From positions 1 through 64,000 of IMG/VR virus record IMGVR_UViG_3300021431_000100: a stretch of 64,000 nt of DNA. One strand, written 5' to 3'. The translations under genes were made by a program, and so were the position numbers. The stretch is from a virus. Lineage: Duplodnaviria > Caudoviricetes. Under the pieces are notes generated by a model. The model was not told where the DNA came from and ran no database searches. It saw nothing but the letters and a program-made list of their open reading frames with translations. This document shows positions 27,409 through 29,467 of the stretch, piece after piece. Every line of letters starts with the position of its first letter. The stretch's first letter is position 1.

Positions 27409-29467
27409 AGAGTAGTAGCTTAATGCCCCTGCAAAGTGTGGAAATTGCTGGAAAGTCCTAAAGTTTATTATGCTACAACGTATTCTTAAACAGAACAGCG
27501 TGAACGCTTGAAAAATAATAAAATGAGCCGTCATGCTCGTAACGGAAACCACATGACGACGATGAAATGGATAATCAGCAGCTAAAACCTCGTCAATGAT
27601 TTTATTGAAGGGGGATGCTCAACGAGTAAGTAGGGAATACACCCTCGCTCACACTAGCTTAAATGTATTAAACACTTGGCGTTAAAGTGGCATTTAAGTG
27701 AAAGATATGCTCTAATCTTTATAGAAACACAAAGAAAAGGTGGAATGTATGTTATCCACCTAAATTATAAAATACTTGTTAAAATGCTATATTGTTTTGT
27801 TTTAAAATATTTTTTAAATTTTCAGTTGAAAGATTTTCTTTGTAAGAAATGCGGATGAGTGTTATATCATGTTCTTTACATAATTTTTCTTTAATTATGT
27901 CGTTTTGATGATGTAAATCAAAATCAAACGTAGATATTTTGTTTTTCATTTTGATTTCGTGAAATGGTCCATCATATTCAATGGCAAGATTTAAAACGGA
28001 GAAATATCCGTCAAGAGATAATTGGTCTTTGTTTTTTAACCAATCAAATTGTTTTTCAAATTCAGGTTCTTGATTTAAAATTTCTGCTATTTTTAATATA
28101 CAATAAGTTCCTGTTTGAGACATTTGTGAGGAAAGATTGTTCAATATGTTTAATTCTTGATATACATTGTTTAAAGAATGGTCAAAATATTTAAGTATGG
28201 TTGGCAAACTGTATTTGGATTCATTAATAATAATGTTTTCACTAAGTACCCCATATTTTTTAACAATGGAACTTAAATCTGTGAGAATATCATTTTTAGT
28301 AATTTTTTTGTGCATATTAGGTTGTAGACCCATTTCTTTTAACAATCCATTAAAACTACCAAAAAATCTATCAACCGCACTTTGGGGTATGTTGGCTTCT
28401 TTAGACCGTTGGATTTTTGTGTTAAATTTGCCATATTTATGATAAAGCTCAAAAGAACGTTTTAGGATTGATTCTTTAGTGAATTCGTTTTGATATGGTT
28501 TAATACCATATAATTTTACAAATTTTGCGAAAGAACCATAATGCTTTTTCATTTGAAATTGAGTAAGTTTTTTATCTGAGTGTGATAAAAAATATTGTAA
28601 AGTAAACTTATCTGTTGAATTATCGGATTGAAATAAAGTATATATTCTTTGTAGTTCAGATTTAAATAATTGTTTAATTTCAATATTTTGTTGTTTTTCA
28701 AGAGGTTGTTCCCCGTTTATACCAATCATTTGTTTAATTTGGGTTAATTTCCCAACAGTTTTTTGAATATGATATTGGCTACAATTTGCAACTTTTATTA
28801 ATTCGTCCATTCGCAAATTACCATTAGTGTTAAAAAGATTTTTTGCAATTTGCAAAATGTCTTTTTTTGTTGGTTTGTTGAGCTTGGGACGGGTTGCTAG
28901 AGCGTCACATTTTACTTTATAAATATCATTCCAACAAGAAAGAGATTTTTTGAAATTTGTAAAAGTTCCAAATAATTCATAAAAATATTCTTTGTTGTAG
29001 TTATTCTTTGTTAAAAAGTCTTTTGCAGAAAAATCAATATGTGTTTGTTCCCAATATTCTTCTCCTTTTAGAATAGCTTCTTCTTTTGTAAAAGTATAGT
29101 TCCCTTTACGGTTAGCTAAATGAGCCATGCTAATTTTGTTTTTGGTTTTTTCTGAATGTGAGCGGTCAGTTTTGACAGGAGTAAATTTAAAAGTTTTTAC
29201 GGTAAAATGGTTTGAGTTTTGTTGATTGTATTTTCTAACAAGAGTGAGAAACCCTTCTGTACTTGTAAGTTCTTTTGACGTATACTTACCTTTTTGAATG
29301 TATAAAGTTTTATTAATTGTTCCATATTGATTATAAATTTTATAAAAATCATCAAACAATTCTTGTTCAGAAAAAGTAGTAATTTTTTTCATATTTTGTT
29401 AACAACTCCTTAACAGTTATTATATAATATAATATATAACAAAACAAGTATTTTATAATTTTTTAAG
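27409..29467 (+). ncRNA. Group I self-splicing intron in dnaE (2059 nt)
   Basis: P1: exon GGGGGT with GCCCCT (27425-30), U-G at the splice site. P10: TAGCTTAAT (27416-24) with 3' exon GTTAAGTTA. P3: AGTGTG/CACACT. P4: TGCTG/CAGCA (AAATTGCTGGAAA, AATCAGCAG). P7: GAGTA (27624-28)/TGCTC (27708-12). P8: CTTAAATG/CATTTAAG. Terminal G at 29467. Splicing restores VELVGG|VKLDIL in frame. Confidence 0.92.
27779..29392 (-). CDS. Intron-encoded homing endonuclease (NUMOD3 + helical repeats + C-terminal Vsr-like/EDxHD-type nuclease), antisense to the intron
   Basis: HSEKTKNKISMAH (NUMOD3), repeated TKxxILxxxxxLxxKYG...FGSF units, and C-terminal LSLDGYF..LNLAIEYDGPFH...LIRI. Own AGGAG RBS. Confidence 0.8.
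   Translation of the reverse strand: MKKITTFSEQELFDDFYKIYNQYGTINKTLYIQKGKYTSKELTSTEGFLTLVRKYNQQNSNHFTVKTFKFTPVKTDRSHSEKTKNKISMAHLANRKGNYTFTKEEAILKGEEYWEQTHIDFSAKDFLTKNNYNKEYFYELFGTFTNFKKSLSCWNDIYKVKCDALATRPKLNKPTKKDILQIAKNLFNTNGNLRMDELIKVANCSQYHIQKTVGKLTQIKQMIGINGEQPLEKQQNIEIKQLFKSELQRIYTLFQSDNSTDKFTLQYFLSHSDKKLTQFQMKKHYGSFAKFVKLYGIKPYQNEFTKESILKRSFELYHKYGKFNTKIQRSKEANIPQSAVDRFFGSFNGLLKEMGLQPNMHKKITKNDILTDLSSIVKKYGVLSENIIINESKYSLPTILKYFDHSLNNVYQELNILNNLSSQMSQTGTYCILKIAEILNQEPEFEKQFDWLKNKDQLSLDGYFSVLNLAIEYDGPFHEIKMKNKISTFDFDLHHQNDIIKEKLCKEHDITLIRISYKENLSTENLKNILKQNNIAF

Follow-up and report, generated by a model that had tools for sequence, protein, structure and literature searches.

A phage record in IMG/VR (Duplodnaviria; Caudoviricetes; IMGVR_UViG_3300021431_000100) contains a group I intron in its dnaE gene, which encodes DNA polymerase III alpha (Pol III alpha), and within this intron lies a putative homing endonuclease gene on the strand opposite to dnaE. 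The window analyzed here is a 64-kb part of the 88.9-kb record, and all coordinates without another designation refer to it. Exon 1 (26698-27408, plus strand) belongs to an open reading frame (ORF, 26698-27423) that starts with the C-terminal half of a split intein (an Intein_splicing match, ending VVHN|S), continues with the palm domain of Pol III alpha (PF07733, E = 9e-49 in Pfam), and comes to ...ELVGG at the exon terminus (bases GGGGGT, with T27408 at the 5' splice site), after which the frame meets an in-frame stop (27421-27423) five codons into the intron. Exon 2 (29468-31222, plus strand) begins VKLDIL... and encodes the finger and HhH domains (PF17657, E = 1e-37; PF14579). The exons are separated by 2,059 bases (27409-29467) in which the sole ORF, of 537 amino acids, is on the minus strand. 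Joining of 27408 to 29468 keeps the reading frame (...ELVGG|VKLDIL...), collinear with uninterrupted dnaE, and the predicted spliced junction is GGTTGGGGGT|GTTAAGTTAGAT. The fourth codon of exon 2 (GAT, 29477-29479) aligns to Asp618 of Taq Pol III alpha, with the lysine of the motif at 616; this Asp618 we take to be the third catalytic aspartate, so that the intron would be inserted three codons before it, where an earlier sequence-only reading of this DNA had also put it. The first and only ATG of exon 2 (29498) is past the KLD catalytic motif, upstream of which there is neither a start codon nor a ribosome-binding site; exon 2 translated alone would therefore miss the catalytic Asp, and a working polymerase needs splicing.

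The plus strand at 27384-27734 matches the Rfam group I intron family (RF00028, 60.6 bits against a gathering cut-off of 50, E = 2.4e-14, model positions 1-253); an Rfam scan of the whole window at gathering thresholds with default filters gave no match, and the intron emerged with laxer filters on a sub-region. The ribozyme core, P1 through P9, is assigned to 27409-27735 (plus strand) by this match and by covariation over 87 pairs. P1 joins the end of exon 1 (GGGGGU, 27403-27408) to GCCCCU (27425-27430), with the canonical U27408·G27425 at the 5' splice site, a U·G pair that is retained in all seven aligned introns (alignment columns 9 and 26). P10 joins UAGCUUAAU (27416-27424) to the first bases of exon 2, GUUAAGUUA (29468-29476), by nine pairs of which two are G·U. 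The intron closes with a 3' tail, UUUAAG (29462-29467, plus strand), assigned from the sequence and from the in-frame joining of 27408 to 29468, and its terminal nucleotide is G29467. P7 is formed by GAGUA (27624-27628) and UGCUC (27708-27712), as against GACUA/UAGUC in the Rfam consensus, with five pairs in register; a C-G pair of the consensus is G-C here, a double change, and a U-A pair has become U·G. One short hairpin (GGG...CCC, alignment columns 241-252; longer in the related intron L007) lies between P7 and P3'; group I introns of subgroup IA, which is typical of phages, have extra P7.1/P7.2 hairpins in this interval. P9 occupies approximately 27716-27735. The group I intron and the 9-bp P10 proposed in the sequence-only reading are thus borne out by the Rfam match, P1, P10, the terminal G and the in-frame junction; its complete core is indeed at the 5' end, extending over ~326 nt to ~27735 rather than over the first ~310 nt, and its compensatory P7 (GAGTA/TGCTC) has the letters given and compensation at the double change, the other position having become U·G. 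The intron presumably self-splices.

Homologous introns were gathered from metagenome contigs by way of the nuclease protein and a core motif, and the whole comparative set (loci designated by L numbers) comprises four close and three distant lineages; the covariation alignment consists of seven introns from four lineages. The 87 core pairs, including those of P7, are 97.3% paired in this alignment, and 33 of the 87 show double-sided changes, compared with 18.9 ± 2.8 in shuffles (0 of 500 reach 33) and 2-6 in slid-register controls. Covariation thus supports the helices P3-P9 together with the P3/P7 pseudoknot, and the pattern argues for strong purifying selection on the structure of the ribozyme core. 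P1 covaries with the exon in L007 (GGAGCU/GGCUC), in which the third P10 pair is also altered on both sides. RF00028 scores of the relatives are 52.9 bits (L002), 51.5 bits (L091) and 48.4 bits (L006), and at the thresholds used Rfam gave no score for the introns of L007, L092, L095, L096, L008, L100, L067, L072 and L097; the introns of the distant lineages were recognized by eye from core motifs, those of L007 and L092 additionally by alignment.

Among 80 other phage dnaE loci fetched from IMG/VR, both exons have matches in 78, nearly all of which are continuous at the intron site: the gap is exactly zero at approximately 31 loci (for example L010, 48% identical), most others show a few codons of alignment slack, and larger gaps at the intron point are found in L067 (1,691 nt) and L072 (939 nt). 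IMG/VR yielded no relatives when exon 2 served for a single-protein search, and no match was obtained by a core-motif pattern search of IMG/VR or by megablast of the region against cultured phages. The spliced-junction pattern had zero matches in IMG/VR and nine among prokaryote genomes, all in unrelated archaeal or candidate phyla radiation (CPR) metagenome-assembled genomes and taken as chance. A close intron-less allele was not found by this pattern in either collection, and the homing site is therefore deduced only.

The minus-strand gene in the intron (27779-29392, 537 amino acids) matches the phage homing-endonuclease family phrog_9084 (E = 1e-9). Its homologues match DUF2726 in nine of nine cases (E ≤ 0.1, best 1.6e-6) and PF18780 (HNH_repeat) in eight of nine (best E = 1.6e-19); no N-terminal NUMOD families were listed in the Pfam search of the homologues, PF18780 repeats being found there instead, and an NCBIfam search with the nuclease listed none. 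The protein is laid out as N-terminal helical "homing endonuclease associated" repeats followed by a C-terminal Vsr-like PD-(D/E)XK domain (approximately residues 413-537). A structural model of residues 413-537 (pLDDT 82) was aligned by VIA to Vsr (1cw0_A, Z 10.2, 114 residues aligned), to I-Bth0305I (3r3p_A, Z 9.2, 94 of 97 residues, rmsd 3.1) and to a DUF559-like protein (3hrl, Z 8.7), clear Z scores coming from this re-alignment only: Foldseek returned just helical-repeat noise for the whole 537-residue model and no match at E ≤ 0.001 for the domain model. The model therefore gives the C-terminal domain a predicted Vsr fold. D461, E472, H478, D498 and K501 are invariant among the homologues, and D474 is present in eight of nine; the spacing of acidic and histidine residues in the window protein differs from that of I-Bth0305I (D196, H213, D222). 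One phage protein annotated as "homing endonuclease EDxHD" is 33% identical over 23% of the query.

The ratio of nonsynonymous to synonymous substitution rates (dN/dS) of the nuclease gene is 0.14-0.35 across comparisons and 0.14 against the 80%-identical copy of L002, from which it follows that the nuclease is a working gene; the minus-strand ORF is real, intact and under purifying selection, in agreement with the sequence-only reading, which had recognized a 537-aa nuclease on the opposite strand. Between ~24.7 and 49.5 kb this is the only minus-strand ORF of at least 100 amino acids that is not nested in a plus-strand ORF, five shorter minus-strand frames (101-206 amino acids) all lying inside plus-strand ORFs. 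As the lone un-nested minus-strand ORF amid ~25 kb of plus-strand genes, the nuclease gene needs its own promoter and signals.

Candidates for such signals are present at both ends of the gene. A putative ribosome-binding site (AAGGAG, 29406-29411, minus strand) precedes the start codon (ATG, 29392) by 13 nt and is conserved in L002. Farther upstream is a candidate promoter, TTGTTT-17-TATAAT (29419-29447, minus strand; TATAAT at 29424-29419 and TTGTTT at 29447-29442), noticed in the sequence and found with the same geometry in L002; in the alignment, no promoter upstream of the nuclease gene is shared across the distant lineages beyond the window and L002. At the other end, a P9.1-like hairpin (GGUGGA-10 nt-UCCACC, 27739-27760) is indicated by the sequence, by the fold of the antisense strand and by covariation of its stem, which is GGAGGA/UCCUCC in L002 and GUGAGAU/AUCUCAC in L006. 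On the minus strand the complement of P9.1 comes directly after the nuclease stop and is followed by TTTTCTTT, whereas on the plus strand no U-run follows the hairpin. The pattern of hairpin and T-run is found again in L002, L006 and L007, and the P9.1 complement with its T-run may act as a one-way terminator of the antisense gene; a terminator scan, in which a loop of more than 8 nt is not listed, did not list the hairpin. A promoter-like sequence on the plus strand (TTAACA-18-TATAAT, 11 of 12 matches, 29399-29428), in a region where site counts are at chance level, lies inside the intron upstream of the 3' arm described below and points toward exon 2.

The P9.1-like hairpin is followed by the 5' arm (27762-27780, plus strand) of a long-range, P9.2-like helix, the 3' arm of which is at 29443-29461 (plus strand). 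The arms, identified as an inverted repeat, are 19 nt each, 100% complementary with no G·U pair, and 1662 nt apart, as the sequence-only reading had it (an exact 19-bp repeat with a loop of ~1.66 kb), and the nuclease stop codon (27779-27781) overlaps the 5' arm by 2 nt, another of its observations. The 64-kb window has no other perfect 19-mer inverted repeat that is long-range, and a length of 19 was attained by one in 20,000 dinucleotide shuffles of the AT-rich flank. The sole other perfect inverted repeat of at least 19 nt in the window (19030-19061) is a local palindrome at the end of a 3D-domain gene and is probably a terminator hairpin.

A helix in the same position, with a different sequence, is present in every related intron examined (L002, L091, L006/L090, L007, L092, L095/L096 and L008), directly after the P9.1 hairpin and with its 3' arm 3-16 nt before the 3' splice site. 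The helices of these relatives have 15-28 positions, of which 15-27 are paired. Counted as total positions with mismatches included, their lengths are 28 in L002 (with two G·U pairs and one mismatch), 22 in L006/L090 (four G·U pairs and one mismatch), 20 in L007, 17 in L092, 24 in L095/L096 and 16 in L008. G·U pairs that can pair in the sense RNA only occur in the helices of L002, L006/L090, L007, L092, L095/L096 and L008, and because such interior G·U pairs are mismatches on the opposite strand, selection on the sense RNA is indicated. The minimum-energy fold of the full-length intron contains the helix in L002 (24 of 28 positions), L006 (16 of 22), L007 (15 of 20) and L095 (22 of 24), and in a mini-intron derived from the window by shortening the loop the helix also forms. 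ORFs in group I introns are usually found in the terminal loops of peripheral helices, where they spare the core (PMC3984707). The equivalent helix encloses sense-oriented nuclease genes as well, in L095/L096 and, in an 8-bp version, in Thomasclavelia phage TR-TP1, and since the same helix flanks these sense-oriented homologues it is not an antisense adaptation. The comparison thus points to an ordinary P9.2-like peripheral element of the intron family, not an antisense-specific device: the stem that the sequence-only reading described as a clamp is real and conserved in relatives, and its special tie to the antisense gene does not hold.

Antisense homologues of the nuclease are found between the palm and finger exons of dnaE in six lineages (L002-L009, L092 and L097), which fall into the clade of the window (L002, L006/L090, L007/L092) and a second clade (L008/L009, L097), with nuclease identity across this layout down to ~30%. 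One lineage is sense-oriented, and L095/L096 have sense-oriented homologues; the protein P0041, a member of the second clade, is encoded in the sense orientation after a homologous core, with an insertion site that we read as one nucleotide away. L091 (contig Ga0256405_10000502, 4163-4651) has an intron of the L002 type, ~489 nt in length, from which ~1.5 kb of the nuclease ORF has been deleted together with the start codon; the deletion spares the last ~12 nuclease codons together with the ribosome-binding site, the TATAAT box and the two arms, divergence of the 5' arm, in which decay has begun, weakens the helix, and the score with RF00028 is still 51.5 bits. This spread of orientation and loss matches the invasion-and-decay cycle of homing endonuclease genes, and it shows the antisense layout to be stable over deep divergence and not obligatory. 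The family offers a natural series for the effect of orientation on splicing and homing: six antisense lineages, one sense, one with the ORF deleted, and forms with extra genes.

These extra genes are sense-strand ORFs of 105-174 amino acids, with promoter-like and RBS-like signals, in the same loop of L008 (reverse strand, sense coordinates 4190-6700) and L097. The loop of L008 also contains a remnant resembling P9 of the window intron (AATCTTTATAGAAATATAAAG) that adjoins the terminator hairpin of the antisense nuclease gene; together with the extra ORFs, this remnant suggests block transfer between intron types and carriage of cargo. The 3' splice site of L006 (reverse strand) and L090 (8172-8205) is ambiguous: P10 and the protein alignment favor ...GACUAAA|AUUAAAUUAGAU, with A as the terminal nucleotide, the nearest G is 6 nt upstream and its use would add Thr-Lys to the protein, and a further pairing joins ACUAAA to UUUGGU, which lies immediately before the 5' arm. 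In some relatives dnaE is interrupted a second time, deeper in exon 2 (L006; L007, after ...GYLFNKSH; L095, 3955-4285); the frame of L095 resumes after a tiny exon (IKLDILKF...) and then another group-I-like stretch.

Considered together, the anatomy and the role as a mobile element are probably those of an ordinary mobile group I intron of a large gut phage, its homing endonuclease gene forming an autonomous antisense cassette in the loop of P9.2. The ribozyme (P1-P9 and the P9.1 hairpin) would make up the first ~350 nt of the intron, the P9.2-like 19-bp helix would close the 1.66-kb terminal loop and place the UUUAAG tail and terminal G beside the core, and the 9-bp P10 would guide exon ligation. 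On the opposite strand, the loop cassette would comprise a sigma-70-like promoter with its -35 box in the 3' arm, a ribosome-binding site, the 537-aa endonuclease with its DNA-binding repeats and Vsr-like domain, and a stop codon overlapping the 5' arm, and termination at the P9.1 complement and T-run would halt antisense transcripts before they enter the ribozyme core or exon 1. The most likely target of the nuclease is the conserved coding sequence for ...GG|VKLD... in intron-less dnaE, cleavage of which would let the intron spread by homing. Because the nuclease gene is antisense, no ribosome would cross the intron RNA, and nuclease expression would be uncoupled from dnaE transcription; these two effects are likely the benefit of the layout. 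In bacteria and phages, ribosomes engaged on the endonuclease gene of a group I intron can impair ribozyme folding (PMC2988022, PMC3984707), and the gain from the antisense arrangement would match the conflict between translation and splicing described for T4 (PMC2988022). Moving the nuclease gene to the other strand, under a promoter of its own and with an intron hairpin as terminator, would remove this conflict by a route unlike the translational controls of T4.

Several observations weigh against this reading. No public RNA runs are listed with the locus. The 13-nt spacing between the ribosome-binding site and the ATG is long, promoter-like sites in the AT-rich region are no more frequent than chance predicts (18 found against 17.5 expected), and a consensus promoter scan did not list the nuclease promoter, the -35 box of which is weak, with just three of six positions matching; thus, of the expression signals put forward in the sequence-only reading, AAGGAG and both promoter boxes are present and recur in L002, and the promoter falls short of the consensus at -35. 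The hairpin of the candidate terminator has just 6-7 pairs. The minimum-energy fold of the window's own full-length precursor lacks the long-range helix, the pair probability of which is near zero there, as computed with energy models that are unreliable for 2 kb of A/U-rich RNA. The isolated 19-bp duplex has just -17.9 kcal/mol; furthermore, the 5' arm would be transcribed ~1.66 kb ahead of its partner, and the helix of L092 includes one C·A mismatch that would pair on the antisense strand only. The window protein's own Pfam matches are under the curated cut-offs (13.7 bits with DUF2726, for which the cut-off is 24.7), and sequence and profile searches of PDB gave no meaningful match to any solved nuclease.

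The sequence-only reading raised the idea that antisense transcription of the nuclease gene regulates splicing of dnaE pre-mRNA and hence the supply of polymerase; this might come about by collision of polymerases or by pairing of the transcript with the intron loop into 1.6 kb of double-stranded RNA. In favor of it, the nuclease gene is convergent with dnaE and complements the intron loop in full, its layout has been kept over deep divergence (nuclease identity down to ~30%), and the intron/homing-endonuclease locus of cyanophage S-PM2 reportedly has an antisense RNA (Millard et al. 2010, cited in PMC3428280). Such regulation is nevertheless unlikely: the hairpin and T-run after the nuclease stop would limit antisense transcripts to the dispensable loop, the sister lineage and phage TR-TP1 have the same nuclease family in the sense orientation, and L091 keeps its intron without the ORF. 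From the sense and ORF-less relatives it follows that dnaE expression is not dependent on an antisense gene, and the lack of listed RNA runs with the locus counts here as well. The inverted repeat might instead act mainly as DNA, its arms serving as cassette ends or as substrates for inversion by recombination and the RNA helix being secondary. The arms in the window are perfectly complementary with no G·U pair, the cassette ends where they lie, with its -35 box in one arm and its stop codon in the other, and between equivalent arms nuclease genes of one family are found in either orientation, which inversion would explain. The G·U pairs confined to sense RNA in the helices of L002, L006/L090, L007, L092, L095/L096 and L008 speak for RNA, however, as do the constant position of the 3' arm, 3-16 nt from the 3' splice site, and the shorter 8-bp helix of TR-TP1, and the window-like P9 remnant of L008 suggests transfer of a larger block, not a simple flip. 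Contigs from four DNA runs show no joints and no intron-less, ORF-less, inverted or deleted form, at low power because contigs drop rare variants. A primary role as DNA is slightly less plausible than regulation by the antisense transcript, and we regard it as distinctly unlikely.

If the intron no longer spliced, dnaE would be a fractured gene, the parts of which are made as separate polypeptides on either side of a free-standing endonuclease gene. A split intein already divides this dnaE elsewhere, and in gene calls and deposited records such loci appear as separate polymerase ORFs, but the core structure is evidently under strong purifying selection, P1, P10 and the terminal G are intact, exon 2 lacks a start codon or ribosome-binding site before KLD (first ATG at 29498) and exon 1 meets a stop five codons into the intron, so that loss of splicing is very hard to credit. 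An improbable elaboration would turn the locus into a built-in timer, in which transcription from the promoter in the 3' arm disturbs dnaE pre-mRNA by collision and loop pairing, the helix joins the intron halves, homing is traded against polymerase, and the arms as DNA allow the cassette to flip without damage to the ribozyme. A mobile intron with an autonomous antisense nuclease cassette remains the preferred interpretation.

The dnaE gene of this phage has other interruptions. Its N-terminal ORF (703 amino acids, 19137-21248) includes a mini-intein within the PHP domain (Intein_splicing, residues 156-308) and extends no farther than the first part of the palm domain; 5.4 kb downstream is the exon-1 ORF, with the intein C-half at 26698-26847. 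The two ORFs look like a split intein, the halves of which are parted by about ten unrelated genes. This essential replication gene is thus heavily colonized, with a mini-intein, a split intein and an intron all to be removed from dnaE. Proteins identical or close to the nuclease are also encoded on metagenome contigs of 265-404 kb, among them contigs of 350-400 kb, from animal gut samples (P0001, P0014-P0026, P0030), and because of these contigs the 88.9-kb record is probably a fragment of a much larger (jumbo) phage.

What is unusual in this locus is an antisense nuclease cassette that has a ribosome-binding site and a candidate promoter and terminator of its own. The literature searched contained no description of a phage or bacterial group I intron in which the endonuclease gene is antisense or on the opposite strand, the words "antisense," "opposite" and "orientation" are all absent from a 2014 review of bacterial group I introns, and every antisense endonuclease case found there comes from eukaryotic nuclear rDNA, which agrees with the remark in the sequence-only reading that phage intron endonuclease genes are normally in the sense orientation. 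The T4 nrdD (sunY) intron with I-TevII, described by Shub et al. in 1988 and Michel et al. in 1992, reportedly has a 5' core with an ORF 3' of the core in P9.x and a remote 3' splice site returned by long-range pairings, I-TevII being a sense-strand GIY-YIG enzyme. It resembles the window intron as a phage intron in a gene of nucleotide or DNA metabolism with a 5' core, a peripheral ORF and a distant 3' splice site, and differs in its sense-oriented GIY-YIG gene, whereas the window gene is antisense with a candidate promoter and terminator and its product is Vsr-like. Cyanophage S-PM2 reportedly has a psbA intron, the adjacent endonuclease F-CphI and an antisense RNA, CfrI, in work attributed to Millard et al. 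2010 and Zeng et al. 2009, both cited in PMC3428280. In S-PM2, as in the window, where the antisense transcript is predicted, one phage locus would combine an intron of group I, a homing endonuclease and an antisense transcript. The S-PM2 endonuclease is encoded by a free-standing, sense-oriented gene downstream and CfrI is non-coding, whereas the antisense transcript of the window would be the endonuclease mRNA itself.

The group I intron in recA of Bacillus phage 0305phi8-36 encodes I-Bth0305I, of the EDxHD family with a C-terminal Vsr-like domain (PMC3239194), and is thus another phage group I intron with a homing endonuclease of this type (Z 9.2 to the window model). I-Bth0305I is encoded in the sense orientation by an ORF that interrupts P5, and has 266 amino acids with NUMOD and HTH motifs; the window protein, in contrast, has 537 amino acids, PF18780 repeats, another spacing of acidic and histidine residues, and no sequence-level match to the solved structure. 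A relative in a cultured phage of a gut Firmicute is found in TR-TP1 (L100, PQ571309.1, 69233-73858), where two "DNA polymerase" coding sequences flank an "HNH endonuclease" (DUF2726), the way in which such loci are now annotated: as two "DNA polymerase" fragments and an "HNH endonuclease." Similar to the window, dnaE of TR-TP1 is interrupted near KLD, with a related nuclease gene following a group-I-like core, and the loop that contains this gene is bounded by a helix (CACUAUGC/GCAUAGUG). Its nuclease gene, in contrast, is in the sense orientation, the insertion is ~7 codons further downstream (after KLDILGLT), and the helix has only 8 bp. No Rfam score was obtained for the TR-TP1 intron at E ≤ 0.01; from its sequence features, the locus appears to be an unannotated dnaE intron.

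Counterparts in organization are the His-Cys box genes that lie antisense in group I introns of nuclear rDNA, Dir.S956-2 of Didymium (I-DirII) and Dsq.L2066 of Diderma (I-DsqI) (PMC3073962, PMC9548176); in nuclear rDNA introns, sense and antisense versions of the endonuclease share one insertion site in related hosts (PMC9548176). Like them, the window intron has an endonuclease gene opposite to the host gene, with an internal promoter of its own (a candidate in the window). Those introns differ in being eukaryotic, with Pol I versus Pol II, spliceosomal introns, polyadenylation and spatially separated transcriptions, whereas both strands of the phage would be read in one compartment with coupled translation, and the His-Cys box enzymes and rDNA hosts have as counterparts in the window a Vsr-like nuclease, phage dnaE and bacterial-type signals. 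The window intron works like the antisense rDNA introns and is not a member of them.

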